Source of the DNA: Verrucomicrobiota bacterium
Lineage (GTDB): Bacteria > Verrucomicrobiota > Kiritimatiellia > CAIQIC01
NCBI GenBank assembly: GCA_004321905.1
Contig: SCQF01000012.1
Coordinates: 5,411 to 69,410, forward strand
DNA length: 64,000 nt
Direction of reading: 5' to 3'
Below the pieces are notes generated by a model, which saw nothing but the letters and a program-made list of their open reading frames with translations, did no database searches and had not been told where the DNA came from. Of this stretch, positions 32,838 through 57,970 are shown piece after piece; the first letter of the stretch is position 1; every line of letters starts with the position of its first letter. A program made the position numbers and the translations under genes.

Positions 32838-33773
32838 ATGAACGTGCCACCCATCGCCTATTTCAAGCCGCTGGAAACGGCGTGGAACAAGATGAAGAAT
32901 TTGCTGTTCCGCCCGTTCGACCTGACGCGTTGGCTCGCGATCGGCTTCACCGCTTGGTTGGCCACGCTGGGCGAGCAAGGCGGTTCTTTCAATTTCCACG
33001 ACGTACATCACCGCCCGGACGTCGGTGCGTTTGTTCACGAACACATGGTGCTCATCATCACCTTGGGCAGCATTGCGGCGGCACTGATTCTGGTCTTGGC
33101 GTTGGTGCTGGTGTGGCTGAGCGCGCGCGGCGAATTTATGTTCCTCGATAATTGCTTGACGGGTGTGGCGCGTGTTGCCGAACCTTGGCAACGCTGGCGG
33201 CGACAGGGTAATTCGCTGTTCATATGGCGGATGGTTTATGGTTGCGTCATCCTAGCCGTGTGCGTCGTGCTGGCGGGACTGTGCGTCGCTCTGGCTTGGC
33301 CGGATATCCGCGCCCGGGTTTGGGGCGGACGGGCCATCGCTGCCGTTGTGGCGGGCGGTCTTTTGTTACTGCTGCTGTCACTGGTGATCGGCTATGTCAG
33401 GATATTTCTGAGTGACTTTGTGGTGGTGTTGATGCGGCGACACGAACTCAAGACCAGCGCGGCCTGGCAAATTTTTCTGCGGTTGTTCCGCACACAACCC
33501 GGTCCGTTTTTGCTCTACGGCCTGCTGCGATTTGCCGTCGGTCTGCTCATTTTCACGGCGGTTTTCCTCGCCGGTTGCTTGACCTGCTGTTGCGGCTTCT
33601 TGATGCTGGCCATTCCGTATGTTGGCACGGTGCTGCTGTTACCACTGCCGGTCTGGCAGCGTTACTGGGGCGTGGAATTTCTGCGCCAGTTCGGTCCGGA
33701 TTACGACGCATGGCGGCTTGATCCACCGGCATTGCCGCCAACCTCCGCAAGACCCACCAGCATCGCGCCATGA
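32838..33773 (+). CDS. Hypothetical polytopic membrane protein
   Basis: About 7 predicted TM helices. The stop overlaps the start of the downstream GT2 gene (ATGA), so the two are probably co-transcribed. Confidence 0.45.
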   Translation: MNVPPIAYFKPLETAWNKMKNLLFRPFDLTRWLAIGFTAWLATLGEQGGSFNFHDVHHRPDVGAFVHEHMVLIITLGSIAAALILVLALVLVWLSARGEFMFLDNCLTGVARVAEPWQRWRRQGNSLFIWRMVYGCVILAVCVVLAGLCVALAWPDIRARVWGGRAIAAVVAGGLLLLLLSLVIGYVRIFLSDFVVVLMRRHELKTSAAWQIFLRLFRTQPGPFLLYGLLRFAVGLLIFTAVFLAGCLTCCCGFLMLAIPYVGTVLLLPLPVWQRYWGVEFLRQFGPDYDAWRLDPPALPPTSARPTSIAP

Positions 33774-34573
33774 AGTTTTCCATCATCACTCCCAACTTCA
33801 ACGGCGCGCGATTTTTGGAAACCGCGCTGACTAGCGTGGCCGCGCAGCGCGGGCCGGACGTCGAGGTGGAGCATTGGATCATGGATGGCAGCAGCACGGA
33901 TGGCTCGCAAGAGATTATTCAGCGCTTTCTCGGACCAGAAACATTTCTTGTGACCGAACCCGACCGCGGGCCGGCCGATGCGATCAACAAGGGGTTGCGG
34001 CGCGCCACCGGCGACATCGTAGCGTGGCTGAACGCCGATGACCGCTATCATGCTCAAGCCCTGCGCCGTGCCGCCGAAATATTTACCGCACAACCCTGCG
34101 CAGCTTTTGTTTTTGGCCACTGCCGGATCGTCAATGAGGGCGATGCGGAAATCCGGCGCGGCATCACCCGTTTCAAGGAGATGTTTTTCCCGTGTTCTTC
34201 TCGTTTCACGTTCCAGTGCATCAACTATGTTTCTCAACCGGCCATGTTTTTCCGTCGTACGGCCATGGCGCGTGCCGGTTTTCTGCGCACCGACCTCAAA
34301 GCCGCTTGGGATTATGAATTCATGTTGCGCTTGTGGCATCACGGTGGCGCGGCCTGCGCACCCGGCGCACCGTTGGCGGATTTCCGCTGGCACCCCGGCT
34401 CTATCAGCGGCCAGACGTTCCGCCGCCAATTCCGCGAGGAATGGGAGGCCGCTGTTGCCGACGCCGGTCGCTACTCGCTGCAAGCGCTTATTCATCTCGG
34501 CGTACGCTTCGGCATCGTCGGCAGTTATAAGCTCATGGCCGCTATTCGGAGCAAAGGAACTGCATGCGCATAG
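33770..34573 (+). CDS. Glycosyltransferase family 2
   Basis: GT-A motifs are present (FSIITPNFNGARFL, WIMDGSSTDGS, WLNADD). It is paralogous to the genes at 46098 and 47430. Confidence 0.8.
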   Translation: MKFSIITPNFNGARFLETALTSVAAQRGPDVEVEHWIMDGSSTDGSQEIIQRFLGPETFLVTEPDRGPADAINKGLRRATGDIVAWLNADDRYHAQALRRAAEIFTAQPCAAFVFGHCRIVNEGDAEIRRGITRFKEMFFPCSSRFTFQCINYVSQPAMFFRRTAMARAGFLRTDLKAAWDYEFMLRLWHHGGAACAPGAPLADFRWHPGSISGQTFRRQFREEWEAAVADAGRYSLQALIHLGVRFGIVGSYKLMAAIRSKGTACA

Positions 34574-35703
34574 GCGTCAACACTCTATTTCTGATTCCCG
34601 GCGAAGTTGGCGGTTCGGAGACCTATCTGCTCGAAACCCTCCACGCCTTGGCCGGCACGCAGCCAGACGTGGAGTTCTTACTCTTCACCAACCTGGAGAA
34701 TGACGCCTTTCTGTGCGAACGATTCAGCCCTTTTCCCAATGTAGATTTTCATTTGCTACCTTTCCGGGCGCGTAATCGTGTTGTGCGTATTTTGCGTGAG
34801 CAATTCGAACTGCCACGCGTTGCCGAGGCGGCCGCCGTGGACGTGCTCTGGTCGCCCGGCTATGTCGCGCCGCTGCGCGCTCCGTGTCCGCAAGTGGTCT
34901 CGATTTTGGACATGCAATACCTGAGTCATCCGTCCGATCTTGCCTGGTCGGCGTGGCTGGCAACCCATGCGTTGGTGATGCAAACCGCCAGGCGTTGCGA
35001 TCACATCCTGACGCTCTCGGAATTTTCCAAGCGCGAGATCGTGCGCCATACCGGTGTTGACCCCGCGAAAGTGACCCCCACCCTGTTGGCCGCCGGTGAT
35101 ATCTTCTTTACGCCACAGCCGCCAGACATGTTGGCGCACGTCCGGCGCGAGTTGGTCGGTGATGACACGCCCTATATCTTCTGCGTCGCCAACACCTATC
35201 CACATAAAAACGTTCACCGATTGATTGAAGCGTTCGGCGTATTGCAAACGGAGTTCCCCCATCGTTTGGTTTTGGAAGGTTTGCCGCGCCGCGGCGAACG
35301 GCGTGTCCAAGCGGCGCTGGCGCGACTGCCCGACACCCACCGCGTGACGCGGCTGGGCCGCACGCCGCGCGCCGAACTGGCCGCACTCTATCAAGCCGCC
35401 GATTTGTTTGTTTTTCCCTCGCTCTACGAAGGCTTCGGCCTGCCGGTGCTCGAGGCGATGGCCGCGGGAACGCCGGTCGTGGCGATGCGTCAAGCTTCGG
35501 TGCCGGAAGTTGGCGGCGACGCCATCACCTATTGCGAACACGATGACACGCCAGAACTAGTCGCCTGCATCCGCGAGATGTTGCGGCTTGATCCCGCCGC
35601 CCGCGCTGCGCGAATCGCCGCCGCCCGCACGCGCGCCGCCACCTTCAACTGGAACCACACCGCCGGCGCTATTGCCGATGTGCTGCGCGCGACCGCCGCT
35701 TAG
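34564..35703 (+). CDS. Glycosyltransferase family 4 (GT-B)
   Basis: The C-terminal GT4 signature is present (FVFPSLYEGFGLPVLEAMAAGTPVV). Confidence 0.8.
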   Translation: MRIGVNTLFLIPGEVGGSETYLLETLHALAGTQPDVEFLLFTNLENDAFLCERFSPFPNVDFHLLPFRARNRVVRILREQFELPRVAEAAAVDVLWSPGYVAPLRAPCPQVVSILDMQYLSHPSDLAWSAWLATHALVMQTARRCDHILTLSEFSKREIVRHTGVDPAKVTPTLLAAGDIFFTPQPPDMLAHVRRELVGDDTPYIFCVANTYPHKNVHRLIEAFGVLQTEFPHRLVLEGLPRRGERRVQAALARLPDTHRVTRLGRTPRAELAALYQAADLFVFPSLYEGFGLPVLEAMAAGTPVVAMRQASVPEVGGDAITYCEHDDTPELVACIREMLRLDPAARAARIAAARTRAATFNWNHTAGAIADVLRATAA

Positions 35704-35707
35704 CTGG

Positions 35708-35758
35708 TTTTCCAAGGCTTGGAAAACCAAAACCTTTCTTTTTCCAAACCTTGGAACA
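35708..35758. repeat. Paired palindromic units (ttttccaaggcttggaaaa, 13 bp, ttttccaaaccttggaaca)
   Basis: Starts 5 bp after the GT4 stop. Confidence 0.8.
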
Positions 35759-36642: not shown

Positions 36643-36655
36643 ACAGGAAAAGTTT

Positions 36656-37495
36656 ATGACAGAAGTGACCGTCATTCGCGCCAGCCAGCCGTGGTGGCGC
36701 ATCAATTTCCGGGAGCTATGGGAGTACCGGGACCTGATGGGAATCATGGCGCGGAGGGACCTGACCTCGGCCTACAAGCAGAGCGTGCTGGGACCGGCTT
36801 GGTTTGTGCTCCAGCCGCTGCTGACGACGCTGGTGTTTACGGTGGTCTTCAGCAACATCGCGGGAATCGGGACGAACGGGATTCCGCCGCTCCTGTTCTA
36901 CATGAGCGGGATGCTGATCTGGAACTTTTTCGCGACGTGTATGAACTCCATAGCGGGAACCTTGACAGACAACGTGGGGCTGTTCGGGAAGGTATATTTT
37001 CCACGGTTGAGTGTGCCGGTGGTGAAGGTGATGGTCACGACAACGACGGCGGGCTTGAACTTCCTGATGTTTCTTGGATTCTGGGCCTACTACCTGTTTT
37101 TCACGGATACGGCGCTGCCGGCGGCTTGGCACATGCTGCTTCTCCTGCCCATTCTGGCCTACGCGGCGATGCTGGGGATAGGGATGGGGCTACTGCTGTC
37201 CTCCATGACGATCAAGTACCGGGATCTCAACTTTTTCCTGCCCTTCTTCTCGATGCTGTGGATGTACGCCTCGCCAATCATCTATCCGGCGAGCATGGTG
37301 CCGGAGCGGTGGCAGTGGGTGATCCTGTACAATCCGATGTCGTGGGCGGTGGAGGCGACGCGCCGCAGCTTGGCCGGCCAGGGGACCTTCAGTCTCGAAC
37401 AGGTGGCTATCGGGGTAGTTTCCGCCGTGCTGTTGCTGGTGGTGGGCCTGTTTGTATTCAACCGGGTGCAGCGGACTTTCGTGGATATTGTGTGA
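36656..37495 (+). CDS. wzm: ABC-2 type polysaccharide (O-antigen/teichoic-acid type) export permease
   Basis: Six TM helices and ABC-2 motifs (AYKQSVLGPAWFVLQPLL, FYMSGMLIWNFF) are present. Confidence 0.85.
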   Translation: MTEVTVIRASQPWWRINFRELWEYRDLMGIMARRDLTSAYKQSVLGPAWFVLQPLLTTLVFTVVFSNIAGIGTNGIPPLLFYMSGMLIWNFFATCMNSIAGTLTDNVGLFGKVYFPRLSVPVVKVMVTTTTAGLNFLMFLGFWAYYLFFTDTALPAAWHMLLLLPILAYAAMLGIGMGLLLSSMTIKYRDLNFFLPFFSMLWMYASPIIYPASMVPERWQWVILYNPMSWAVEATRRSLAGQGTFSLEQVAIGVVSAVLLLVVGLFVFNRVQRTFVDIV

Positions 37496-37508
37496 GCGGA
37501 GGGGAGCC

Positions 37509-38804
37509 ATGGACGCGCCGGCCATTTCAGTGCAGAACATCTCGAAGAGGTATCACCTCGGGTCCATCAACCGCCGGACGCTGGCGGATGAGATCCGCTA
37601 CGGCTGGCTGAAGCTGTGCGGGCAGGATCCGGTCGTGCACATGGGGACAGTGGGGGCGAAGCCGAGCAAACGGAATCCGGAATTCTGGGCTTTGCGGGAT
37701 GTGTCCTTCGATGTACAGCCGGGCGAAATTGTCGGCATCATCGGCCGCAATGGCGCCGGCAAATCCACGTTGTTGAAAATCCTCACGCGCATCACGGAAC
37801 CCACCGCTGGCAAAGCCTTCATTAATGGCCGCGTGGGATCTCTGCTGGAAGTGGGCACCGGTTTCCACCCGGAATTGACTGGCCGCGAGAACATCTACAT
37901 GAACGGCACCATTTTGGGCCTGAAGAAACGGGAAATCGCCGCCAAGTTCGATCAAATCGTAACCTTTGCCGAGGTGGAGAAATTTCTGGACACGCCGGTG
38001 AAACGTTATTCCTCCGGCATGTATGTCCGCTTGGCGTTTGCCGTGGCGGCCCACCTAGATCCGGAAATCTTGATCGTGGATGAGGTCCTCGCGGTGGGGG
38101 ATACCGCCTTTCAAAAGAAATGTTTGGGGAAGATGGGCGCAGTCGCCCGGGAGGGGCGCACGATTCTCTTTGTCAGTCATAATATGGCGGCCATAGAAAA
38201 CCTGTGCAGTCACTGCATTCTACTACAGGACGGAACAATCGCGGGGGATGGACCGACCGACGAAATAATCTCCCGCTATCTGCGCAAGGCGATGGATTCG
38301 ACCGGCGAAGCGAAAGGACTAAGCGAACGCACCGACAGATCAGGGTCGGGCGCAGTGGTTTTGTCCGACTTCCATCTCGAAGATACCAAGGGACGCCAAG
38401 TGTCTGCACTTCAAAGTGGTGCAGATGCAATATTTGCATTTACCATCTCGAACCGGACAGGAAAAAGCATCCAGCGACTGGATGCCGGTTTCTCGATTCA
38501 CGACGCCACTGGCAGTCAGGTGTTCACCATCCTTTACAGTTCCTATCAAAACCATGAATTCGAAATGACTTCCGCAAGGGGTTGTATCCGCTGCAAGGTT
38601 CCGGAGCTTCCCTTGGCGGCAGGGCGGTATCGGATCGGTGCACGCCTGACCCTCCAGGGCGTGGAAACTGATTGGCCCCAAGATGGGGTGGGATGGCTGG
38701 ATGTCATTGAAGGTGATTTTTATGGGTCAGGTCACAAGGGCTTTGGCAGTCATGCGCCGTTTTTATTGAAAGGCGACTGGAACCTCGCGGAGCAAGGAAG
38801 CTGA
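37509..38804 (+). CDS. wzt: Polysaccharide ABC exporter ATP-binding protein with a C-terminal (~180 aa) substrate-binding extension
   Basis: Walker A (GRNGAGKST), the signature (YSSGMYVRLAFAVA), Walker B (ILIVDEVLAVGD) and an extra C-terminal beta-rich domain are present, as in the Wzt transporters of E. coli O8/O9a. Confidence 0.85.
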   Translation: MDAPAISVQNISKRYHLGSINRRTLADEIRYGWLKLCGQDPVVHMGTVGAKPSKRNPEFWALRDVSFDVQPGEIVGIIGRNGAGKSTLLKILTRITEPTAGKAFINGRVGSLLEVGTGFHPELTGRENIYMNGTILGLKKREIAAKFDQIVTFAEVEKFLDTPVKRYSSGMYVRLAFAVAAHLDPEILIVDEVLAVGDTAFQKKCLGKMGAVAREGRTILFVSHNMAAIENLCSHCILLQDGTIAGDGPTDEIISRYLRKAMDSTGEAKGLSERTDRSGSGAVVLSDFHLEDTKGRQVSALQSGADAIFAFTISNRTGKSIQRLDAGFSIHDATGSQVFTILYSSYQNHEFEMTSARGCIRCKVPELPLAAGRYRIGARLTLQGVETDWPQDGVGWLDVIEGDFYGSGHKGFGSHAPFLLKGDWNLAEQGS

Positions 38805-38807
38805 TCT

Positions 38808-39500
38808 ATGCTGCAAGCGTTATTGACGCACATCAAAGACCGCCGTTGTCCGCGAGAGCAAAGGGACTCGTTCGCACTCGAAAAGTTGGACATCAAGCTG
38901 GAGCCTTATTTGCGGCGGCGCGGCGGTTTCTTTATAGAGGCTGGAGCCAATAACGGCATCAGCTATAGCAACACGCTTTACTTTGAGAAATATCTAGGCT
39001 GGCACGGTTTGCTGATCGAGGCGGTTCCTTCGTTGTCCGAAGACTGTCAGAAAAATCGCCCGCGCTGCCTTGTTGAGCATTGCGCTTTGGTTGCGGCGGA
39101 ATATCCACAGCACACCATAGAGATACAGTATTGCAACCTGATGAGTATCGTCCCAGGGGCCTTGGGTGATGCCGAGGAGGAAAGGAAACACATCCAAGAC
39201 GGCCTTCAATTCCTGAAAAGTCATGAAAAGGTCTATACAACAAGGGTGCCCGCCCAGACGTTAAGCGCGATAATAGATAAGCATCAGATCGAACACATTG
39301 ATCTGCTGTCACTTGATGTTGAAGGCTATGAGGCCCAAGCCCTCAAAGGCATTGATTTTGACCGCCACCGGCCAGAGTTTATGCTCATCGAAGTGCGCCG
39401 TAAGCCGGAAATCGAAGCGGTCATTGGAAAATATTACACCGTTGTCGCCGTGTTGCAGGCCAACGAAGCCTATGCTGACATTCTCTACCGAAGGCTATAA
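38808..39500 (+). CDS. FkbM-family methyltransferase
   Basis: The FkbM domain is present (FIEAGANNGISYSNTLYFEKYLGWHGLLIEA...HIDLLSLDVEGYE). Confidence 0.75.
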   Translation: MLQALLTHIKDRRCPREQRDSFALEKLDIKLEPYLRRRGGFFIEAGANNGISYSNTLYFEKYLGWHGLLIEAVPSLSEDCQKNRPRCLVEHCALVAAEYPQHTIEIQYCNLMSIVPGALGDAEEERKHIQDGLQFLKSHEKVYTTRVPAQTLSAIIDKHQIEHIDLLSLDVEGYEAQALKGIDFDRHRPEFMLIEVRRKPEIEAVIGKYYTVVAVLQANEAYADILYRRL

Positions 39501-39546
39501 AACCCGAAAAATAATGGCACCATTCGAAGCGCGTTGGCGATAACCC

Positions 39547-40218
39547 ATGCTGGACGTAATAAAAAGACTTAGGCACATCCTTGGCAGCAGCCTGCGGTTC
39601 GCCGGGGGGATGAAAAGCTCGAAAAACGACGCTTCATCAACCCCGCGCGACGCAAGCTTGGATTTAATCGGGTCGCTGATTGCTTCGGGCGAGCCTATCA
39701 AATTGGAGATCGGGGCGGGAACCAAGAAGGGCGCGCAGGGTTGGTTGACCTCAGACCAGTGTCCCGGGGCCGACTTAATGATGGATTTGCTGAAGCCTTT
39801 CCCTTTCCCTGATAATACCGTCAGCAAAATCTATTCATCCCATGTGCTTGAGCATTTCTACACTGACCAACTGAAGTTTGTCTTAGGCGAATGTCGGCGT
39901 GTCTTGAAGCCGGGCGGCATGATGAGCGCCTGTGTGCCGGATGCCGGACTATACGTAGCGGCGTACTTGCATCCTGAAGCTTTTGATGCAGAAAAATACT
40001 GCAAGTATAAGCCAGGCTATAATTTCTACTCCAGCATCGATTATTTGAATTACATCGCTTACATGGGCGGGCATCACCGCCATATGTTTGACATGGAGAA
40101 TCTGCTGACGATCCTGTCGGAGAGTGGTTTTCGGAATGGCAGAGCGCGGAAGTTTGACCCTGAATTGGATCTGGCCAACCGGGACGACGAATCAATCTAT
40201 GCGGAATGCGAAAAATAA
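39547..40218 (+). CDS. Class I SAM-dependent methyltransferase (Methyltransf_11-like)
   Basis: Motif I (LEIGAGTKKG) and the post-I motif (VLKPGGMM) are present. Confidence 0.65.
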   Translation: MLDVIKRLRHILGSSLRFAGGMKSSKNDASSTPRDASLDLIGSLIASGEPIKLEIGAGTKKGAQGWLTSDQCPGADLMMDLLKPFPFPDNTVSKIYSSHVLEHFYTDQLKFVLGECRRVLKPGGMMSACVPDAGLYVAAYLHPEAFDAEKYCKYKPGYNFYSSIDYLNYIAYMGGHHRHMFDMENLLTILSESGFRNGRARKFDPELDLANRDDESIYAECEK

Positions 40219-49721: not shown

Positions 49722-49832
49722 AAAAATATTCCCATGGTGAGTTAATTTCGCAAGCTATGGCCCGCCGCTATCGCTGGTCGTCACCACTCATCTTGGGCAA
49801 AGATGACAATGCCCCGTGAACAGGAATCAACC

Positions 49833-51095
49833 ATGCGTATTTTAATTGCCTCACACTATCTGCCGTGGCCGCTTAACTCGGGCGGCAATGCGGCGCAGTT
49901 CTCCACATTAAAGTGCTTGGCGGAAGACCACCAGTTCACACTGGTTTGTCCGGTGTATACCGAGGCCGAATTCTTGCACGTGAATGAACTTCAACGCCAA
50001 CTTCCGCAAGTTTATATTCGTCCGGTATGTTATAATAAAGCAACACGAACGAGATTTTTAGCGCGCATCGTACGGTTTATACGGGGGGGGCGGCTTCTAG
50101 ACTTATCGGCCCACCAGCATCCGGAACCGCCAGGCATGGGCAGACCTTACTATCCGTTCTTGCCATTACCGGAGAACTTGATCCTTGTATTGCAGGAAGA
50201 ATTGTCGAAGGGTACGGATTTATTCCAAGCGGAATTTGTAGAGATGCTACCACTTGGTGCTTGGATCCCAGAAAATATACCAAAGTTATTCATTCATTAC
50301 CAAATTCACTTTGTTTATTCGGATAGATTTCTGACAACCCGTGGCAGGGATGGTTATTCTGATTACCTAAATGCCGCCATGCGTGTACAGGAGGTGGCTT
50401 ATCTTCAGAACTTTGAGGGTGTGATTACATTAAGCGAAGAGGATCGGCAATGCCTCGTGCCATATGTTGCACCAGAGAAACTGTTTGTTAGCCCCTTCCC
50501 TATACCGGCTGATATCGGCATTGCTACTGATCTTCCGCAACGGTTTGATGGTAGATTCCTATTAGTAGCGTCAGAAGGACATGCGCCCAACCGAGATGCT
50601 CTCGCGTGGTTACTCGCTGACGTTTGGCCGAAGATCAAGAGCAAGTTGCCATTGGCCCGGCTGCTTGTCGTCGGAGAATGGAGTGAATCGGCCAAGATTA
50701 GACACTCAACAGCTGGGTTAAGCTTCTTGGGTTTTATCCCCGAGCTTGCCACGACGTTACGAGGCGGCATTCTGCTGGTGCCATTGCGGATTGGTAGTGG
50801 TATTCGAGTCAAGATCATGGTCGCGTTGGCGCAGGGGGTGCCCGTTATCAGCACAACGGTAGGCTGCGAGGGGTTGCAGGTCAAGGATGGGCAGGAGATC
50901 TTGGTTCGGGATGATCCCCAGGAATTCAGCAAGGCCGCCATCCAACTGGCTCAAGACCCGGAGTTGTGGCGGCGCTTAGCTGTGAAGGGCCGGACTGCCG
51001 CTACCGATTACTATTCCCCCGAGGTCGTGCGCCGACGCCGAAATGAGATTTACGCCGAACTCGCAGAGAATCATCGGCGCGCCCGCGCGCCCTGA
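49833..51095 (+). CDS. Glycosyltransferase family 4
   Basis: The N-terminus MRILIASHYLPWPLNSGG and the C-terminal GT-B motif (IMVALAQGVPVIST) are present. Confidence 0.75.
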   Translation: MRILIASHYLPWPLNSGGNAAQFSTLKCLAEDHQFTLVCPVYTEAEFLHVNELQRQLPQVYIRPVCYNKATRTRFLARIVRFIRGGRLLDLSAHQHPEPPGMGRPYYPFLPLPENLILVLQEELSKGTDLFQAEFVEMLPLGAWIPENIPKLFIHYQIHFVYSDRFLTTRGRDGYSDYLNAAMRVQEVAYLQNFEGVITLSEEDRQCLVPYVAPEKLFVSPFPIPADIGIATDLPQRFDGRFLLVASEGHAPNRDALAWLLADVWPKIKSKLPLARLLVVGEWSESAKIRHSTAGLSFLGFIPELATTLRGGILLVPLRIGSGIRVKIMVALAQGVPVISTTVGCEGLQVKDGQEILVRDDPQEFSKAAIQLAQDPELWRRLAVKGRTAATDYYSPEVVRRRRNEIYAELAENHRRARAP

Positions 51096-51250: not shown

Positions 51251-52288
51251 ATGAAACAAGCGCCTTGCGTTAGCATTTGTATCCCCACCTACAACAGCAG
51301 GGACTATCTTGCTGAATGCATTGCCAGTATCCGCGCCCAGACCTTCACAGACTACGAGGTCGTAATTTGTGATGATGAGAGTTCGGATGGAACGCTCGAC
51401 TTGGCCCGACAACTGGCCAAGGGCGACACCCGCTTTCGTTTCATTTCAAATCCGTGTCGCTTGGGGCTTGTTCAGAACTGGAATAATTGCGTTAAGCAGG
51501 CGCGCGGAGAATGGATCAAGTTTGTATTTCAAGATGATGTTATCAAGTCGTCATGCCTTGAAAAGCTCCTCCTCGCGTGCGAGCGGGGGCACAAGTTGGT
51601 TGGATTTTGCGAGCGGGATTTTATCTATGAAGACAGGACACCCCCGGCACTACGGAGTTCGTTTGAACGCCATAAACAAAAGCTGCGTACAGACTACCAG
51701 GGCACATCGGTAATTGATGCAGCGCGCGCCGTGCAAATCGCAATTCAGCATCCATGGCACAATCTTGTCGGCGAACCCACGGTGACCCTGATTAACAAAT
51801 CTGTATTTCACGCGTGGGGGGAATTTGATCCGGCATTTGTTCAATTGTGCGATACAGAATTTTGGTGCCGCATAATGATTAACGAAGGGGCGGCATTTGT
51901 GCCGCAGAGCTTGGCCGCGTTTCGTGTTCATTCCAAAGCAACAACGGCACAAAACCTCGCCCAAAGGACGTTCCGCATGGATGTCTTGGACAAATTAACG
52001 TTGCGTTATCAGCAGGCCTTTGGTCGCCACTTCAAGCCCGTCCGAAATCCCCGCCTGACGGGAAAAACTACGTATGCGCTACGCAAGGACTGTGCCGTTA
52101 CGGCGGCCCAAGCTTGGCAACAGGCGAGAATGGTTTGCCGAGCCGGTGACGAGTCGTTTATCTCCGAGTGGCGGGAAGTCAGATCACATCATCCCGGGCT
52201 TCACGCCCTTGCCGGCCTGGGTTGTTGGTGGCTTTTCCTTAGCTGGATGAAGCGCATGATTGTTCACAGACTTGACTCGCAAGCCTAA
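51251..52288 (+). CDS. Glycosyltransferase family 2
   Basis: VSICIPTYNSRDYLAECIASI, VICDDESSDGT and FQDDV are present. Confidence 0.8.
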   Translation: MKQAPCVSICIPTYNSRDYLAECIASIRAQTFTDYEVVICDDESSDGTLDLARQLAKGDTRFRFISNPCRLGLVQNWNNCVKQARGEWIKFVFQDDVIKSSCLEKLLLACERGHKLVGFCERDFIYEDRTPPALRSSFERHKQKLRTDYQGTSVIDAARAVQIAIQHPWHNLVGEPTVTLINKSVFHAWGEFDPAFVQLCDTEFWCRIMINEGAAFVPQSLAAFRVHSKATTAQNLAQRTFRMDVLDKLTLRYQQAFGRHFKPVRNPRLTGKTTYALRKDCAVTAAQAWQQARMVCRAGDESFISEWREVRSHHPGLHALAGLGCWWLFLSWMKRMIVHRLDSQA

Positions 52289-52315
52289 GTTTCGACCGAA
52301 ATACAACCGATAAAT

Positions 52316-53671
52316 ATGATGCCAAAAGTCAGTGTTGTGACGGTCAATTATAATGGGGAACGATTTCTCAAGGGACTCCTGGAGAGCATTGCTAAACAGA
52401 CCTACTCTGCTTTCGAAACGATTGTGGTCGATAATGCTTCGACCGACACTTCGGTTGTGGAACTTCAACGCCGTTTCCCCAGTGTACGTATCGTAACAAG
52501 CGGCACAAATCTTGGATTTGCCGGCGGGAATAATCTTGGCGCCCAACAGGCACGCGGCGACCTGATCGCCTTCATCAATAATGACGCGGTAGTTGACGAA
52601 TATTGGCTCGAAAGGCTTGTTAACAGATATGTCCGCTTAGAAACGCAGGATCACCGGGTTGGCGCAATCGCACCGAAGGTGCGGTTGTTTAGGCGTTTCG
52701 TTGAAATCACCGTTACTGTGCCCACGTCTTATTCTGCCGATCATGATAACCGAGCGCTTGGTATTGCCGTTGATATTCAAAATACCGGCATTATGGGCGC
52801 GGACTATGACAAGAAACTTTTCCGGGCTGGTTTTTACAAGGAGGAATGCGGGTTTGATGGGCGGATCGTGCGGTGGTCCAAGGGTAATTGCTCGTTCTCG
52901 CTGCCCATTCCAGACCCGCCCCCTGCAAATCCTGCTCAACCGGCTATGCTGCGCCTCACCGTTTCAGGTGGAAGCGCCACAGACAAACGCGTCGCAGAAA
53001 TCTATTGTGGGACCACCCGCCTTTCAACAATCGCGGTGAATAAATCCTTCACCACCCACGAGATTTCGCTCGCACCCGGCATGCTGAATCAAGCAACGTG
53101 GCTAATTAACAATGCCGGTACCCATCTCAATTTCCGGAATGGAGCAACCGCCGACCGCGGTATTTTTGAGCAAGATATGGGGCAGTATGATTTTTCAAGT
53201 CCGGTGGACGCCTTTTGCGGATGTTCATTTTTGATGAACCGGGCTTTGTTTCTTCGCTTCGGAGGATTTGACGAATCATTTTTCATGTACTTTGAGGACA
53301 CCGATCTATCTTGGCGACTAACCAAAGCCGGATATCGCATTTTTTTTGAACCGACCAGTGTTGTCCACCACATACACGCAGGCTCCAGCATCGAATGGTC
53401 GCCTTCGTTCCGATATCATGTGACGCGAAATCAACAGTTGATGAAAATAAAAAATATTCCCTCGCTCATCTTGCCTGCGACATTGCTTTTACTTGTTGTT
53501 AAATGGCTGTTTTATGGGGTGAGTCTTGTCCGTAGTGATGGGCTGCCGCGCGATCTTTCGTTGTCACAACTCACACCAGACCAGATAAGTTTCAAGGCGT
53601 TGGGGACTGCGCTGCGTATGGCATCAGCCATGCTTGCCAAACGGGCCCACAATCCCCCCGTTAATGCATGA
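52316..53671 (+). CDS. Glycosyltransferase family 2 (rhamnosyltransferase-like) with a ~150-aa insertion and a C-terminal TM segment
   Basis: VSVVTVNYNGERFL, VVDNASTD and FINNDAVV are present, plus a C-terminal FMYFEDTDLSWRL motif. Confidence 0.8.
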   Translation: MMPKVSVVTVNYNGERFLKGLLESIAKQTYSAFETIVVDNASTDTSVVELQRRFPSVRIVTSGTNLGFAGGNNLGAQQARGDLIAFINNDAVVDEYWLERLVNRYVRLETQDHRVGAIAPKVRLFRRFVEITVTVPTSYSADHDNRALGIAVDIQNTGIMGADYDKKLFRAGFYKEECGFDGRIVRWSKGNCSFSLPIPDPPPANPAQPAMLRLTVSGGSATDKRVAEIYCGTTRLSTIAVNKSFTTHEISLAPGMLNQATWLINNAGTHLNFRNGATADRGIFEQDMGQYDFSSPVDAFCGCSFLMNRALFLRFGGFDESFFMYFEDTDLSWRLTKAGYRIFFEPTSVVHHIHAGSSIEWSPSFRYHVTRNQQLMKIKNIPSLILPATLLLLVVKWLFYGVSLVRSDGLPRDLSLSQLTPDQISFKALGTALRMASAMLAKRAHNPPVNA

Positions 53672-55263
53672 GAATAGGTATTTACAACCGCTATTGGAAC
53701 ACCCTAGGTGGTGGCGAAAAGTATGCCGGGACATTGGCCGAGACCTTTTCAGAAAAACATGATGTTGATTTGATCACCACGGCTCCCAACAATACGATTG
53801 AGGAACTTCAGCGTAGACTCCGCCTTGATTTGCATAGATGCCGTCCCGTGTGTTGGCCCAACAAGCCGTGTCGGGACCTGTACCCGCTTAGTTCGGCCTA
53901 CGATTTGTTCATCAATGCAACATACTGTTCATCCATGCCGTCTGCCGCACCGCTTTCGTTATATGTGTGTTTCTTTCCGCACCCTGTTGTTGGAGCAACC
54001 ACATGGCAGCAGCTCGCCACGCTCGCAGGGCAGCGTGTCCGCGCCATATCCGAGCAAGCCCGCGATCGCATGGAATCGTGCTGGTCTTTGTTGCGTCGCC
54101 CCCGGGCGATTCTTCTGGCGGGGTATCACGATCGCGGAGCGAGTGGACAGGGCTGTTTTGCCGGTCACGGGCTGATGGCCATTCATGCCAGTGCGCTAAG
54201 CGCGGGCCGGCTTCACATTCCCCTGCATGAGTCATCCACCAGCAACGTGCGGAGCGTGCGGGTTGATGGGGTTCCCGCCTCGTGGACAATACACGACCAC
54301 ACGCTCGTGGTTGAATGGCCAATCGCACCAATAAAGGACTGGATGGTTCTTGCATTTGAAACAGACACCTCCGATCAGCCGAAGAGCAAGCTTTCGTCGA
54401 AATATCGCGCCACAGGACTATGTATCAACACCACTACACTTGGTGCCGTCATAGACCGTGGCTTCAGAAACCGGCTCTTTCCACCCGCATCGGCATCCAT
54501 AGCGATTAATTCTTACACCCGCATTCTCGCCATATCGGAGTTTACTTCGCGCTGGGTACAGACCCGATGGAATCGGACTTCCGAACTTCTCCCCCCTTCT
54601 ATTGATACCGACATGTTCACCTTCGACCCCGCAGTTCCCCGGCAACCTGTGATTCTAAGTGTCGGGCGTTTTTTTCATGGCAGCCACAACAAGAAGCACC
54701 ACGAAATGGCCAGGGCTTTTATCCGCCTGCGTTCGGAAGGTGTAATCCCCGAAGGATGGCGACTCCGTTTCATTGGTTCCCGACATACTGACCGATGGCA
54801 ACATCGGCTTTTCTTCAAAAAATTGGAAAGAATATGCGCCGGGCATCCCATTGATATTTTGACCGACTTGCCCTTTCCTGCGCTTTTAAAAGAATATCAA
54901 CAGGCCCACGCCTACTGGCACGCGGCGGGCTGGGGTGAAAAAGAGGATAGCACCCCCGAACTGCACGAACACTTCGGTATTACGACTTGCGAGGCCATGG
55001 CTTGCGGATGCCTCCCCATTGTGATTGATAGCGCAGGCCAACGGGAAATTGTGCGAGGCGTTCAACAAGCAGGGTTTCTTTTTGAAGACTACGCATCATT
55101 GAAGAAGCAAATGACCGAGTGTGTATCTGTATTTGGCACAGAACGAGTGACAACCATGCGAGGGATTGCGCACGACTCAATCATGAAATACTCAAAGGCC
55201 TCGTTTGTGTCAAAAGCAGAAGCAATCCTGCGCGACCTTAAATATGATAGACTGCGGGACTAG
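53668..55263 (+). CDS. Glycosyltransferase family 4 with an extended N-terminal domain
   Basis: The C-terminal GT-B motif is present (HEHFGITTCEAMACGCLPIV). It overlaps the previous stop (ATGA). Confidence 0.7.
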   Translation: MRIGIYNRYWNTLGGGEKYAGTLAETFSEKHDVDLITTAPNNTIEELQRRLRLDLHRCRPVCWPNKPCRDLYPLSSAYDLFINATYCSSMPSAAPLSLYVCFFPHPVVGATTWQQLATLAGQRVRAISEQARDRMESCWSLLRRPRAILLAGYHDRGASGQGCFAGHGLMAIHASALSAGRLHIPLHESSTSNVRSVRVDGVPASWTIHDHTLVVEWPIAPIKDWMVLAFETDTSDQPKSKLSSKYRATGLCINTTTLGAVIDRGFRNRLFPPASASIAINSYTRILAISEFTSRWVQTRWNRTSELLPPSIDTDMFTFDPAVPRQPVILSVGRFFHGSHNKKHHEMARAFIRLRSEGVIPEGWRLRFIGSRHTDRWQHRLFFKKLERICAGHPIDILTDLPFPALLKEYQQAHAYWHAAGWGEKEDSTPELHEHFGITTCEAMACGCLPIVIDSAGQREIVRGVQQAGFLFEDYASLKKQMTECVSVFGTERVTTMRGIAHDSIMKYSKASFVSKAEAILRDLKYDRLRD

Positions 55264-55269
55264 CATACG

Positions 55270-56991
55270 ATGCTGAAAATAGCCGAAGGGGCAAATTTCA
55301 TGACAGTCAACGTCAATAATAGGGCATGCAAGATAAGGCGCCGCACATTTGCATACGTATTTCTCACCATCGGCGTCTTGGCACTTCTAAAGCCCTTACT
55401 TGCGCATCCGGCTGGCGTCCTTTCAGCATCCCGGCCAGATGCCCCACTTTGTGTCTTCATTTTAGAACAGGTTTTTCAGAACATCGTACACGGAAGGGAC
55501 TGGTACTATACTCAAACGTTTTTTCCGTTTAACCAGGCCATCGCGCTCAGCAGCAATCTATTCCTTTACCAGGTGATATACACCCCGCTGCGTCTCTTGG
55601 GCTTCAATCCGCAAATTTCATTCAACATGCTCTATGGCTTCGCCTTCCTTCTACTGGGCATCATGGTGTTCGAATGGGCCTATCGGCAACTTCATCACAT
55701 GGTTCCGGCCACCTGTGTGGCTTTGCTGAGTATCTTGCTGTGTGTGCCGGTCTACTATATTATGGCCCATTTCCAATTGCTGTCCGCCTACTATTACCTT
55801 CTTCTCCTAATGATCTGTGACGATTATGCGCTACACCCCAAGGGCCGGCATATTCTCGCCGGGCTGGTCGTGGTATTGCTTATGTTTGCCTGTGAACCAA
55901 ACGTGGCGGTAACCGGCGTCTTTATCACTCTAATCTATGTGTTGATACGATCGCGAACCTTTCTGACCGCAACCGTGAACATCCGGTGGAGTCGGCGCAA
56001 GTTTTTTGCCGTCGGACTCGGCAGTATTGTTGTGATCACAGCACTAGCTTGGATCGCTATGCCTTATCTTCATGCGGTGAAAATAATGGGAAACCGGCCA
56101 TTACAAGAGGCGGCCGTGTATAGCAGTTGGGTTGGATCCATCTTGTCTCCTCCAGGTAACTCCGTATTCCTGAAACCGGACACTCTTCCATGGGGCCGTC
56201 ACGAAGCATTGCACCTCAGCGGCTTTCTATACTTAGGCTTGGGCCTTGCCGGATGCATCTACGCGGGGCAGCAGCGAGAAAAGCGTTTAATCCCGCTATT
56301 TATCCTGCTGGGTATCGTCTATTGCGCATCATTTGGGCCTGTTTTTATTCATGGATTCCCCACGAACCCGTTCTATTTAATTCCCTACACGATTATGCCG
56401 GGATTCGCTGCTAACCGGACACCCGGTCGCTTGGTCATGTGTGTGTTACCATTGATGAGTTTGTTTGCCGTGTATTTTGTCTTCGCCTTGGGTGCGAGGG
56501 TCTTTAATGGCCTCTGGCGAAAAGTTGTGCCTGTCGGACTTGTTGCCTTAATGATGCTGGAGGGTATGCCTTGGCTTCCTGTGGTCGCTTATAATTACGA
56601 AGCGGCAACGGCACATTACACCGAGTTAAACAAGGTCACCCAAGAGGGCGACAGCATAATTCGTCTGCCATACGAACCGTGGCCCTCATCACCCAGCGGA
56701 ATTACAGAGGAAATGCTTGGCATCCTGCGCACTCATTGTCGAACGGTCAACGGTTATAGTAGCTTTGACCCACCCCTGCGCAGCAAATACCAGAACTGCA
56801 ACATATGGAATCAGCTCTGCACTGAAACGGCCGCGCCACTAGCCTGTGCGCAACTCGCCAGCGATAGGATAGCATGGATCGTCATTGACAAGCAGAACAC
56901 CAGTGCGGCCGAACGTGAAGCGATCTTGCGCTGTAGGTCACCCCGGCAGATTACTTCTGAGACAGCCCATTTCCTGTTGATTCGGCCCTAA
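55270..56991 (+). CDS. Polytopic membrane protein, putative GT-C-fold glycosyltransferase / polysaccharide polymerase-like (low GC)
   Basis: About 12 predicted TM helices, followed by a ~130-aa soluble C-terminal domain. GC is about 48%. No defined family motif was recognised. Confidence 0.4.
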   Translation: MLKIAEGANFMTVNVNNRACKIRRRTFAYVFLTIGVLALLKPLLAHPAGVLSASRPDAPLCVFILEQVFQNIVHGRDWYYTQTFFPFNQAIALSSNLFLYQVIYTPLRLLGFNPQISFNMLYGFAFLLLGIMVFEWAYRQLHHMVPATCVALLSILLCVPVYYIMAHFQLLSAYYYLLLLMICDDYALHPKGRHILAGLVVVLLMFACEPNVAVTGVFITLIYVLIRSRTFLTATVNIRWSRRKFFAVGLGSIVVITALAWIAMPYLHAVKIMGNRPLQEAAVYSSWVGSILSPPGNSVFLKPDTLPWGRHEALHLSGFLYLGLGLAGCIYAGQQREKRLIPLFILLGIVYCASFGPVFIHGFPTNPFYLIPYTIMPGFAANRTPGRLVMCVLPLMSLFAVYFVFALGARVFNGLWRKVVPVGLVALMMLEGMPWLPVVAYNYEAATAHYTELNKVTQEGDSIIRLPYEPWPSSPSGITEEMLGILRTHCRTVNGYSSFDPPLRSKYQNCNIWNQLCTETAAPLACAQLASDRIAWIVIDKQNTSAAEREAILRCRSPRQITSETAHFLLIRP

Positions 56992-57037
56992 TAATGACGA
57001 GGGGGACCCAATAAAACCACTGCCCGTCACGGTCTGC

Positions 57038-57964
57038 ATGGTAACGTATAATGCGGTAGCATTACTGCCTGATGTTCTGACCCGCCTCCTCGTTGTCACC
57101 AATTACCCTGCTGTGCGTTGGTTGGTGGTGGATAACGCCAGCACCGATGGCACGGCGGACATGGTCGCCCAACAGTTCCCGCAAATTCGCGTGGAACGCA
57201 TGGCTGCCAACCTCGGTTATCCCGCCGCCTTGAACCGCGCGATCGCGCTGGCGGAGACAGACTTGGTGGCGCAGGTCAATCCCGACGTGCTCGTGGAGTC
57301 TGATTGGTTGGCTCCGTTGGTAGAAGCGCTGTTGCGCGCGCCTAACATCGGCATGACTGGCGGACGCATTTTGAACTCCGACGGCACTACGCAATTCTGC
57401 GGCACGCGCTTGCATCCCTTATACGGCCTGCTTGGCAACCGCTTCCCGTTTGATCCCGGAAATCATGAGGCGGAGGTGGATTTCCATAGCCCACTTTTCC
57501 TGGTGCGGAAAACGGCGTGGCAGGTAGCCAACGGTATGAACGAGCTTTATTCGCCTGGTTATTATGAAGATGCCGAATTGGGCTGGAATCTTCGCCGAAC
57601 GGGCTGGCGAGTATTATTCGTGCCGGCCAGCCGGGCGGTGCACCTCGGTTCCGCCAGTTTTGGGCGCTTGGCGCGTCACGATTTTATGCGCATCTATGAA
57701 CGTAATCGCCTGCTTTTCGTTTTCCGCAATTTCCCGACAACCTGGCTGACACTACACGTGCTCCTGGAGGGTATAAAAGCTGTGGAATGTTTACTCCGTG
57801 GCTATTTCCGGGAATATCTTGCGGCATGGCGCGAAATATTTCACCGCCGTGCCGAAATCCGATTATTTCGCGCAACTTGGCAACACACCGATTCCATCCG
57901 CAACCGGCGTTGCCGCCAGAGCGCGGGCCAAGGTGAAAAAACACACGTGGCGCACAGGAACTGA
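57038..57964 (+). CDS. Glycosyltransferase family 2
   Basis: MVTYNAVALL, VVDNASTDGT, VNPDVLV and a C-terminal YYEDAELGWNL motif are present. Confidence 0.75.
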   Translation: MVTYNAVALLPDVLTRLLVVTNYPAVRWLVVDNASTDGTADMVAQQFPQIRVERMAANLGYPAALNRAIALAETDLVAQVNPDVLVESDWLAPLVEALLRAPNIGMTGGRILNSDGTTQFCGTRLHPLYGLLGNRFPFDPGNHEAEVDFHSPLFLVRKTAWQVANGMNELYSPGYYEDAELGWNLRRTGWRVLFVPASRAVHLGSASFGRLARHDFMRIYERNRLLFVFRNFPTTWLTLHVLLEGIKAVECLLRGYFREYLAAWREIFHRRAEIRLFRATWQHTDSIRNRRCRQSAGQGEKTHVAHRN

Positions 57965-57970
57965 CCGCTG

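Follow-up and report, generated by a model that had tools for sequence, protein, structure and literature searches.

Open reading frame analysis combined with Pfam and NCBIfam scans revealed a run of genes at positions 32838-57964 of the window, the 64-kb stretch of DNA studied here. The run covers about 25 kb, and every gene in it lies on the + strand. The source genome is an uncultured Verrucomicrobia MAG. The run contains wzm, wzt, 12 Pfam-supported glycosyltransferases (GTs; 8 GT2 and 4 GT4), a GT-A domain fused to a TylF O-methyltransferase, an FkbM methyltransferase (MT), a class I MT, WecE, a WecD-like GNAT, a MarR regulator, and an orphan GT-C-like membrane protein. Addition of the GT-A N-domain of the fusion brings the number of GTs to 13. 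These scans confirmed the initial annotation of the region as an ABC-dependent polysaccharide locus with at least 12 GTs and three methyltransferases; the GT genes beyond WecE number eight, not seven as counted there. The features are as follows.

32838..33773, +, DUF7544 polytopic membrane protein (Pfam DUF7544, E 3e-30; five hydrophobic segments)
33770..34573, +, GT2a glycosyltransferase (Pfam Glycos_transf_2, 86.5 bits)
34564..35703, +, GT4a glycosyltransferase (Pfam Glycos_transf_1, 94 bits; Glyco_transf_4)
35709..35757, no strand, palindrome pair (TTTTCCAAGGCTTGGAAAA), 17-19 nt each, 32 nt apart (RNA fold z-score -3.7)
~36034-36642, +, MarR/GbsR-like HTH regulator just upstream of wzm (Pfam MarR_2 and MarR)
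36656..37495, +, Wzm, ABC-2 permease (Pfam ABC2_membrane, 77.7 bits)
37509..38804, +, Wzt (Pfam ABC_tran and Wzt_C)
38808..39500, +, FkbM-family methyltransferase (Pfam Methyltransf_21, 81.8 bits; TIGR01444)
39547..40218, +, class I SAM methyltransferase (Pfam Methyltransf_11, 36.5 bits)
40206..41138, +, GT2b glycosyltransferase (Pfam Glycos_transf_2, 39.8 bits)
41167..42903, +, GT-A-TylF bifunctional protein (TylF 140 bits, C-terminal half)
42900..44201, +, GT4b glycosyltransferase (Pfam), conserved neighbour of the fusion
44198..44959, +, GNAT N-acetyltransferase, WecD-like (Acetyltransf_1, 66 bits)
44937..46082, +, WecE-type dTDP-4-keto-6-deoxyhexose 4-aminotransferase (NCBIfam equivalog)
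46098..47015, +, GT2c glycosyltransferase (Pfam)
47430..48302, +, GT2d glycosyltransferase (Pfam Glycos_transf_2, 89.7 bits)
48654..49721, +, GT2e glycosyltransferase (Pfam Glycos_transf_2, 87.8 bits)
49803..51095, +, GT4c glycosyltransferase (Pfam Glyco_trans_1_4, 65.9 bits)
51251..52288, +, GT2f glycosyltransferase (Pfam Glycos_transf_2, 112.6 bits)
52316..53671, +, GT2g glycosyltransferase (Pfam GT2 match split, residues 6-109 and 276-380)
53668..55263, +, GT4d glycosyltransferase (Glycos_transf_1 at residues 325-482 only)
55270..56991, +, orphan 573-aa polytopic membrane protein (~8 TM segments)
57038..57964, +, GT2h glycosyltransferase, last gene of the locus (Pfam Glycos_transf_2, 69.8 bits)
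57970..58018, no strand, palindrome pair, 32 nt apart, directly after GT2h

The start of the locus had been placed at 33770. The upstream unit probably opens earlier, at 32838, with the DUF7544 gene, whose 3' end shares 4 bp with GT2a. Of the many 4-bp overlaps described before, four are exact (33770/33773, 42900/42903, 44198/44201, and 53668/53671); three further overlaps measure 10, 13, and ~23 bp. The palindrome pair at 35709..35757 divides the GT2a-GT4a unit from the MarR-wzm unit, and the pair at 57970..58018 marks the right boundary of the locus. An intergenic palindrome occurs at nearly all other gene boundaries and is missing throughout 35758-57969. The MarR reading frame is open from 35719, and its true start is probably the Met at ~36034. 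In locus L006, an orthologue of this regulator (46% identical) lies immediately 5' of wzm, and the GT2 preceding MarR-wzm is 54% identical to GT2a. Family searches across the whole 64-kb window gave no match to Wzx, Wzy, Wzz, or WaaL, in agreement with the earlier claim for the first three. The window also encodes no initiating phosphoglycosyltransferase and no RmlA/B.

Wzt consists of a nucleotide-binding domain (~37509-38290) and a C-terminal carbohydrate-binding domain (CBD; ~38290-38801). A C-terminal extension of ~180 aa had been noted; it is present and reaches ~170 aa beyond the nucleotide-binding domain. The Wzt_C family scored 43.1 bits (cut-off, 30.4), and comparison of the AF2 model of the CBD (pLDDT 81.7) with the PDB by Foldseek returned solved Wzt CBDs as all of the best 17 matches (5hno, 8dku, 7k2t, 2r5o, 6o14, and 8dky). 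The fold check proposed with the initial annotation was therefore passed, and the Pfam match and the predicted fold identify the C-terminus as a genuine Wzt-type CBD. The model matched the Kdo-binding O12 CBD equally well; a match of predicted folds does not tell Kdo-, methyl-, and phosphomethyl-binding CBDs apart.

The FkbM gene starts 3 bp past wzt. The bifunctional protein comprises a GnT-I-like GT-A domain (residues 1-288), a disordered linker (289-327), and a TylF-type sugar O-methyltransferase domain (~330-578), and its AF2 model (pLDDT 90.2) shows two confident domains. Foldseek matched the N-domain to POMGNT1 and GnT-I. The C-domain matched SpnH, NovP, and MycF in PDB sequence searches (E 1e-20 to 6e-25) and SpnH, MycF, NovP, CalS11, and MeT1 (6g80) by Foldseek. 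The motifs of both domains are intact: in the EDD motif of the GT-A domain, E102 is nearly invariant, D103 is at least 90% conserved, and D104 is invariant, the WGWATW motif is conserved, and the LDGD...DDY metal motif of the TylF domain aligns with SpnH, MycF, NovP, and CalS11. The fusion is the likely candidate for the chain terminator, in place of the kinase/coiled-coil type. The mechanism analogous to WbdD that had been suggested fails at the level of its parts: the locus encodes no kinase, none of its proteins contains a long coiled coil (the longest Pro/Gly-free run is 41 aa), and the model of the fusion has no helix of more than 24 residues.

Gene neighbourhoods were compared in 86 loci encoding the GT-A domain, 80 from a genome scan and 6 additional ones. 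The domain is encoded by itself, beside MT genes, or as a fusion with a methyltransferase of the TylF, FkbM, or class I type; in 74 of the 86 loci, no wzt gene lies less than 10 kb away. Wzt homologues encoded at most 10 kb from a GT-A homologue all carry a C-extension of 161-182 aa (12/12). Sequence identity to the window CBD (25-37%) was limited to CBDs from wzt genes located at most ~2 kb from a GT-A gene; these wzt genes are directly adjacent to the GT-A gene or separated from it by one or two MT genes. This CBD subtype is found in 16 distinct loci, which are not phylogenetically independent; in 14 of them, an MT-encoding gene lies directly 3' of wzt. At the level of gene order, this conserved adjacency strengthens the link to methylation and supports the reading of a methyl cap. 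An FkbM gene comes after wzt in L006, L060, L087, L089, L091, L092/93, L095, and L096. A class I MT gene adjoins the GT-A gene in L002, L004, L005, L012, L013, L060, and L096, as does a GT4b homologue, found in 31 of the 86 loci, in L001, L002, L004, L005, L013, and L096. The gene order of the cassette, wzt-[FkbM]-GT-A(±MT)-class I MT-GT4, is seen again in several phyla, among them Verrucomicrobia, CPR bacteria, and cyanobacteria. GT2b is low in G+C, and the 72%-identical relative lacks it at this locus.

The best NCBIfam match of the GNAT was dTDP-4-amino-4,6-dideoxygalactose acyltransferase (WecD), which scored 75 bits and thus fell short of the cut-off (219). WecE passed two NCBIfam models (NF008687, 585 bits with cut-off 375; TIGR02379, 552 bits with cut-off 435), so that its product may be the precursor of either Fuc4NAc or Qui4NAc. 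GT2g has a ~160-aa insertion and a single C-terminal hydrophobic helix (TM segment 384-402), and GT4d has a long middle region that matches no family. The product of 55270-56991 is not a cytoplasmic GT but a polytopic membrane protein of no Pfam family. A word-level search found no homologues of it, and HMMER found 118 relatives, some with F5/8 type C domains. Its matches were all sub-threshold (YfhO, PTPS_related, DUF6541, DUF6056, DUF7657, and CBM_AftD). Asp57, located after TM1, is nearly invariant, and the protein is probably a GT-C-like periplasmic glycosyltransferase.

Taken together, the locus appears to be an ABC-transporter-dependent surface-glycan cluster of the type that exports chains once their non-reducing end has been modified, a reading that we regard as reasonably probable. 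Up to 13 GT-A/GT-B enzymes would assemble a glycan on polyprenol, facing the cytoplasm, and WecE and the WecD-like GNAT would supply one of its sugars, a 4-acetamido-4,6-dideoxyhexose. The products of genes shortly past wzt (the FkbM and class I MTs, the GT-A-TylF fusion, and probably GT4b) would complete the chain with an O-methylated terminal sugar. The GnT-I-like domain of the fusion may add the last sugar, and the tethered TylF domain may methylate it, either on the glycan or beforehand on the nucleotide sugar; the FkbM and class I enzymes may contribute extra methyl groups. The CBD of Wzt would then bind the methylated terminus, and the chain would be passed to Wzm/Wzt for export. The GT-C-like 573-aa protein may attach a branch in the periplasm, after which enzymes from outside the locus would ligate the glycan to its carrier, most likely lipid A-core. 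The window contains a gene for an LpxL-like lipid A acyltransferase, indicating that the organism makes lipid A, and from this one gene the product would be an LPS O antigen.

Three methyltransferases exceed the need of a single methyl cap, so that in-chain methylation is possible; their number suits in-chain methyl sugars as well as the cap suggested by the wzt-MT adjacency. The methyltransferases might thus decorate sugars along a polymethylated polysaccharide, as in mycobacterial methylmannose polysaccharides, where GT4 enzymes and methyltransferases alternate, and the CBD would read another terminal feature, e.g., 4-acetamido-4,6-dideoxyhexose or another unique sugar. The three methyltransferases belong to different families, one of the matches of the TylF domain is MeT1 from the methylmannose pathway, the GT-A/MT/GT4 cassette often lacks a nearby wzt, the closest relative retains WecD and WecE together with the cassette, and the specificity of the CBD cannot be read from its fold. 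However, an MT gene directly follows wzt in 14 of the 16 loci regardless of other locus content, WecE is missing from the majority of these, and a CBD that reads methyl sugars could not single out finished chains if every residue were methylated. We consider this explanation rather unlikely. Another unlikely reading, somewhat less probable, treats the locus as a mosaic of at least two juxtaposed glycan systems. Only the conserved head (wzm-GT2c, 36.6-47.0 kb) would then serve the transporter, and the tail (47.4-58.0 kb; seven GTs and the GT-C-like protein) would make or modify a different glycan, e.g., core oligosaccharide or periplasmic side branches. In line with this, synteny with the 72%-identical relative stops after GT2c (58% identity), beyond which the genes differ, G+C varies from 0.47 to 0.59 along the locus, non-coding gaps of 414 bp (47016-47429) and 351 bp (48303-48653) occur, and 12-13 GTs are many for an ABC-dependent repeat polymer. 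The shared strand, the absence of the recurrent palindrome between 35758 and 57969, and the lack of convincing terminators inside the locus argue for one unit, and variable GT tails behind conserved export and termination genes are normal serotype variation, as exemplified by the P. syringae TET operon (PMC7820976).

The product might also be not an LPS O antigen but a protein glycan (e.g., on an S-layer protein or another glycoprotein) or an exopolysaccharide, either free or anchored to a lipid, with the 573-aa protein acting as transferase or ligase. The wzt-CBD and GT-A-TylF cassette also occurs in CPR/Patescibacteria genomes (L009 and L010), which to our knowledge are generally held to lack LPS. 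WaaL is missing from the window, the 573-aa protein has no family assignment, and a precedent exists in Gram-positive S-layer glycans, which employ Wzm/Wzt and methyl caps. Against this stand the LpxL-like gene and the usual location of WaaL and WecA genes apart from O-antigen loci. This destination seems unlikely, and it would leave the export mechanism unaffected.

CBD-gated, methyl-capped ABC export is already known from E. coli O8/O9a, Klebsiella O7, A. aeolicus, and P. syringae. The Wzm-Wzt-WbdD system of E. coli O8/O9a (= Klebsiella O5/O3) resembles the window locus in export by an ABC-2 permease and ATPase, in the C-terminal jelly-roll CBD of Wzt (2r5o is among the top Foldseek matches), in an SAM methyltransferase encoded with the transporter, and in the absence of Wzx, Wzy, and Wzz. 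In contrast, the window has no WbdD-like protein, its methyltransferases are either small proteins or part of a GT-A fusion, its GTs are many more, and CBD identity is only ~14%. The well-studied terminators all carry a coiled-coil ruler or kinase, neither of which is found here. This includes the K. pneumoniae O7/O4/O12 terminators (PMC11231755). They resemble the system proposed here in joining terminator and GT modules within one protein and in the gating of export by the Wzt CBM, which admits capped chains only. They differ in that every one of them has a coiled-coil ruler, that methyl-phosphate or Kdo serves as the cap, and that none has a TylF/GT-A architecture. A. aeolicus Wzt, the best PDB match and best full-length structural homologue (8dku/7k2t, E 2e-68; also 8dky), binds a phosphate-free 3-O-methyl sugar cap (3-O-methyl-Man/Rha) through its CBD (PMC9445017). 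In the sequence alignment, its lid residue Trp362 is the one of four methyl-pocket residues identical in the window Wzt; the others are not conserved (Thr346 to Gly, Ala348 to Arg), and the window CBD alone is too divergent for a sequence match. The P. syringae CPA TET operon (wzm-wzt-O-methyltransferase-WbdA) likewise groups transport, elongation, and termination genes with a CBD-bearing Wzt, and in some strains GT and O-methyltransferase are fused (PMC7820976). That operon relies on a dual GT4 polymerase and includes the sugar pathway genes gmd and rmd, whereas the fused GT of the window is a GnT-I-like GT-A accompanied by three methyltransferase families. The C-domain of the fusion is, by sequence, fold, and metal-binding Asp motifs, a member of the TylF/MycF/NovP/SpnH/CalS11 deoxysugar O-methyltransferases; the known ones are stand-alone enzymes of antibiotic pathways, whereas the window domain is fused to a GT in a cell-surface glycan locus.

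Analysis of the window, which lies on a 94-kb contig of a metagenome-assembled genome named 'Verrucomicrobia bacterium' (locus tags EPN23_), revealed a surface-glycan gene cluster in which all convincing genes between 32838 and 57964 are called as ORFs on the + strand. ORF calls and Pfam/NCBIfam searches confirmed the polysaccharide locus with wzm/wzt, glycosyltransferases (GT) and methyltransferases described in the initial annotation as real and, save for small corrections, correctly described. That inventory had overlooked the genes for a MarR-like regulator, a DUF7544 protein and a 573-aa membrane protein. It had also counted seven glycosyltransferases past WecE; Pfam supports eight. The order of the locus is as follows.

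+ strand, DUF7544 membrane protein
33770, + strand, GT2a
+ strand, GT4a
35709/35741, palindrome pair
36034-36642, + strand, MarR/GbsR-like regulator
36656-37495, + strand, Wzm
37509-38804, + strand, Wzt
38808-39500, + strand, FkbM methyltransferase
39547-40218, + strand, class I methyltransferase
40206-41138, + strand, GT2b
41167-42903, + strand, 578-aa GT-A-TylF fusion
42900-44201, + strand, GT4b
+ strand, WecD-like GNAT
+ strand, WecE
46098, + strand, GT2c
+ strand, GT2d, GT2e, GT4c and GT2f, in this order
52316-53671, + strand, GT2g
53668-55263, + strand, GT4d
55270-56991, + strand, 573-aa polytopic membrane protein
57038, + strand, GT2h
57970/58002, palindrome pair

Pfam supports eight GT2 and four GT4 enzymes, and a 13th GT domain is located inside the fusion. 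Exact 4-bp overlaps are present at four gene junctions. Promoter and terminator scans within the locus gave results at chance level, and operon structure is not established by these scans. The ORF at 47020-47352 (110 aa) had no family match and was treated as non-coding. Long non-coding gaps at 47016-47429 (414 bp) and 48303-48653 (351 bp) lie in the part of lowest G+C, where synteny with a close relative stops. GT2b is positioned in a low-G+C stretch (~0.49). In a 72%-identical relative, the class I methyltransferase and fusion genes have no GT2b between them, which suggests a recent insertion. GT2g and GT4d each carry an insertion of ~150-200 aa, interrupting or preceding the catalytic domain, which Pfam describes in neither protein. 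These insertions appear beta-rich by sequence and are possibly carbohydrate-binding modules. The regulator gene directly 5' of wzm has a 46%-identical counterpart (5943-6452) in locus L006 of the unrelated assembly GCA_964393515.1, which suggests that it is a conserved part of such export operons.

The G+C content drops from ~0.60 in the flanks to 0.47-0.54 across most of the locus. The upstream flank contains housekeeping genes (NDK, an aminotransferase, ComEC, rpsB, tsf), and the downstream flank encodes a SurA-like PPIase and an ECF sigma factor. The latter and a probable anti-sigma gene (59300-60471) adjoin a gene at 60541-63441 on the - strand; it encodes a papain-family (C1) protease of 966 aa that is secreted and carries BACON-like and InlB B-repeat domains. 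Further upstream, a 775-aa ORF at 12885-15212 (- strand) shows oxidoreductase domains only from residue 311 on, and an AEC-family transporter gene (14187-15425, + strand; Mem_trans, E 2e-29) is antisense to its N-terminal part. Since the transporter is real and the domains begin only at residue 311, the minus-strand ORF is over-extended.

Inspection of the flanks revealed a perfect palindrome of 17-19 nt, TTTTCCAAGGCTTGGAAAA, at nearly every intergenic region or gene boundary, mostly in pairs whose copies are spaced by exactly 32 nt, the sequence between them being unconserved (55 strand matches in the window versus 0.26 expected). The sites are as follows.

Upstream: 2416, 7472/7504, 9894/9926, 12106/12138, 17817/17849, 21571/21603, 22473, 23176/23208, 29635/29667, 32156/32188
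Locus edges and downstream: 35709/35741, 57970/58002, 60482/60514, 63435

No copy is present within 35758-57969, so that the pairs at 35709/35741 and 57970/58002 bracket the genes from MarR to GT2h as one 22-kb block. Such a block could be one transcription unit, or it could have been imported; import would also explain its lower G+C. An inverted repeat (35708-35758/57969-58019) was considered as the mark of a mobile island and rejected, as its arms are copies of the window-wide palindrome. A hairpin of 16-18 bp can form between the copies of a pair (z-scores -2.4 to -3.7), and Rfam gave no match. The element could be REP/BIME-like, a terminator or mRNA-stabilising stem, or the operator of a global regulator.

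Two genes of the locus point to the sugar content of the glycan. WecE, a dTDP-4-keto-6-deoxyhexose 4-aminotransferase, matched at equivalog level (NF008687, 585.5 bits, cut-off 375; TIGR02379, 552 bits, cut-off 435), and the adjoining GNAT, which resembles the dTDP-fucosamine acetyltransferase WecD, matched below it (best NF008212, 75 bits versus a cut-off of 219). Together, these sequence matches indicate that the chain contains a 4-acetamido-4,6-dideoxyhexose. Fuc4NAc, named in the initial annotation, is not established: galacto and gluco NCBIfam models both pass. The window also contains an LpxL-like gene (3104-4039), and the organism is therefore predicted to make lipid A; an LPS O antigen is hence the likeliest product of the locus. 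The wzt-proximal cassette is also found in CPR bacteria, so the cassette as such is not LPS-specific.

Wzm and Wzt are encoded together as an ABC-2 permease (PF01061, 77.7 bits) and an ATPase (PF00005, 83.2 bits). Wzt comprises 431 aa, with a nucleotide-binding domain followed by ~170 residues that match Wzt_C (PF14524; 43.1 bits, cut-off 30.4). Among solved structures, that of A. aeolicus Wzt (PDB 8dku, E 2e-68) is closest to the full-length protein. In this full-length alignment the part covering the carbohydrate-binding domain (CBD) is carried by the nucleotide-binding domain; Pfam and fold were therefore used to identify the CBD. By phmmer, the CBD alone had no relevant match in the PDB, its sequence being too divergent, and only seven word-level homologues were found, from which an AlphaFold (AF2) model was built (pLDDT 81.7). 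Foldseek comparison of this model with the PDB revealed Wzt carbohydrate-binding domains as all of the best 17 matches (E 1e-9 to 4e-7), including the domains of serotype O12, which binds a Kdo cap (5hno, 5hnp), of A. aeolicus, which binds a methyl sugar (8dku, 7k2t, 6o14, 8dky), and of E. coli O9a (2r5o); unrelated beta-sandwiches followed at 1e-4. The Wzt-CBM fold anticipated for this C-terminus is thus borne out by Pfam and by the modelled fold, and the modelled domain is a genuine jelly-roll carbohydrate-binding domain. Its fold does not tell which cap is bound. In the A. aeolicus CBD, for which the binding mode was shown, a bare O-methyl sugar suffices as the cap and Trp362 forms the lid of the methyl pocket (PMC9445017). 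Trp362 aligns with a Trp in the Wzt described here; Thr346 and Ala348 pair with unlike residues.

The 578-aa protein encoded downstream was correctly labelled as a GT-TylF fusion, with a GT-A fold at its N terminus and TylF at its C terminus by Foldseek and Pfam. In its confident AlphaFold model (pLDDT 90.2), a disordered linker (289-327) connects the two domains. The C-terminal half belongs to the TylF family of sugar O-methyltransferases (PF05711, 140 bits, cut-off 23) and is related to SpnH, NovP and MycF (E 1e-20 to 6e-25), and its metal-binding LDGD...DDY motif was aligned to that of SpnH. Foldseek assigned it a Rossmann methyltransferase fold, with matches to SpnH, MycF, NovP, CalS11 and mycobacterial MeT1 (E 8e-16 and TM 0.81 versus 4ce0). 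Residues 1-300 had no match in Pfam, GNT-I included, or in NCBIfam. Alignment of 78 homologues of this GT-A domain revealed FNRP, DGPR, EDD (E102, D103 and D104) and WGWATW motifs that are invariant or nearly so. Foldseek matched the model to the GT-A enzymes POMGNT1, GnT-I and GnT-II (5ggi, 1fo8 and 1foa at E 5e-10 to 7e-9). The predicted resemblance to GnT-I (GT13-type) is one of fold and motif only, not of curated-family sequence. A literature search found no characterised homologue of the GT-A domain; the bioinformatic survey of Mann, Kimber and Whitfield (2019) lay outside its scope.

To describe the distribution of this domain, homologous loci from other genomes and metagenomes were compared. 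The GT-A domain was found in at least 591 loci of the genome collection, including CPR bacteria and one archaeon. It may stand by itself, have a discrete TylF gene as its neighbour, or form a fusion with a TylF, FkbM or class I methyltransferase. This Rosetta-stone pattern ties the glycosyltransferase to methylation. The archaeon is Candidatus Methanoperedens (L068), and the CPR/Patescibacteria are represented by many genomes (including L009, L010, L038, L039, L076 and L077).

In a forward test, Wzt homologues were sought within 10 kb of the GT-A domain in 86 loci (80 from the genome scan and six fetched earlier). They were found in 12 of these, all with a C-terminal extension of 161-182 aa. 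Similarity to the CBD studied here could be detected (25-37% identity) only in the CBDs of L006, L009, L010, L012, L013 and L060. In exactly these loci, wzt adjoins the GT-A gene or lies no more than ~2 kb away, separated from it by one to two methyltransferase genes. In a reverse test, metagenomes were searched with the CBD (A4 being the closer alignment subset and A2 too divergent for the scan), which gave ten further loci; L092 and L093 are probably the same locus. An FkbM methyltransferase gene comes directly after wzt in seven of these loci; of the other three, two have a GT4 gene at this place and one has a gene for a further methyltransferase of class I type. Across both tests, a methyltransferase gene lies directly downstream of wzt in 14 of 16 distinct loci with this CBD subtype, a suggestive count rather than a statistic, as the loci are phylogenetically non-independent and come without a background rate.

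The recurring order is wzt-[FkbM]-GT-A(±methyltransferase)-class I methyltransferase-GT4, and L006 even retains the GT2a-MarR-wzm arrangement. Synteny with the 72%-identical relative stops after GT2c, beyond which the GT sets differ; serotype-like variation or a mosaic of systems could each account for this. The GT-A domain directly follows the wzm-wzt(CBD) pair in L009, L010 and L012, and L012 also carries gmd and an rmd-like gene upstream. In L006, a gene for a 23S rRNA intervening-sequence protein (PF05635; 7388-7816) is inserted between wzm and wzt.

No Wzx, Wzy or Wzz family match was found anywhere in the window with Pfam/NCBIfam, and the absence of Wzy from the locus is likely. The 573-aa protein, with ~8 TM segments, is the only polytopic protein of the locus without an assigned family. 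A word-indexed homologue search returned only the self-match. HMMER collected 118 relatives, a small family for which there is no Pfam model, and their profile gave only noise against the PDB. Matches to GT-C families all stayed below threshold (DUF6541 at 17 bits for the protein itself; YfhO in 5 and PTPS_related in 2 of 38 relatives). Asp57 after TM1 is nearly invariant, and some relatives carry C-terminal F5/8 type C (discoidin) domains. From its sequence, the protein is probably a periplasmic GT-C-like enzyme; no identity as Wzy, WaaL or GT-C is assignable with confidence. In L006, a membrane protein with DUF7657/DUF7654 holds a similar position, and a GT2 comes after it.

The best-supported reading of the locus is the already known 'terminate, then export' scheme. 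The glycan would be assembled in the cytoplasm on a polyprenol carrier, the last sugar would be added and O-methylated by the wzt-proximal cassette, and the Wzt CBD would read the methylated terminus and license export. The three methyltransferase domains near wzt are candidate chain-terminating enzymes. The methyl-capped glycan proposed in the initial annotation gains support from the conserved adjacency of wzt and methyltransferase genes; the cap itself we still infer. With three methyltransferases in the locus, the cap may carry several methyl groups, or methylation may take place within the chain. A literature search found nothing on a Rhizobium etli tri-O-methylfucose cap or on methylated O antigens of Verrucomicrobia.

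The analogy to WbdD of the O8/O9a system fails at the level of parts. Pfam scans revealed no kinase family in any locus protein, Pro/Gly-free runs reach 41 aa at most in the locus proteins (a crude heuristic for a coiled-coil ruler), and helices in the fusion model do not exceed 24 residues. With neither ruler nor kinase found, chain length would be set otherwise, or the glycan would be a defined, non-repetitive oligosaccharide made by many single-action glycosyltransferases. Tentatively, and with somewhat less than even confidence, we propose that the cassette (a GnT-I-like GT-A domain that stands free, beside or fused to a TylF, FkbM or class I methyltransferase, plus an FkbM methyltransferase, a class I methyltransferase and a GT4) represents a distinct, widespread class of ruler-less terminators. 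It would make a single-step, possibly multiply methylated cap, would share a history of co-evolution with a Wzt CBD subfamily of its own, and would be used by diderm and CPR/monoderm lineages. If this reading is right, the 'cap, then export' quality control of O-antigen ABC transporters extends to Verrucomicrobia, and the joining of GT-A domains to sugar O-methyltransferases is a candidate ruler-less terminator architecture that recurs in many phyla. The CBD (residues ~262-431) and the 578-aa fusion offer glycobiologists a protein pair for study.

The characterised terminators (WbdD, those of Klebsiella O4, O7 and O12, and that of E. coli O101) all possess a coiled-coil ruler, in contrast to the present locus, and those of O9a and O7 also need a kinase, which the locus lacks. 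Methyltransferase-GT fusions beside wzt are already on record for P. syringae, and the concept in general is therefore not new. ABC export of methyl-capped chains with CBD gating is likewise well established; if the proposed reading holds, the cassette would leave this model unchanged and add a variant to it.
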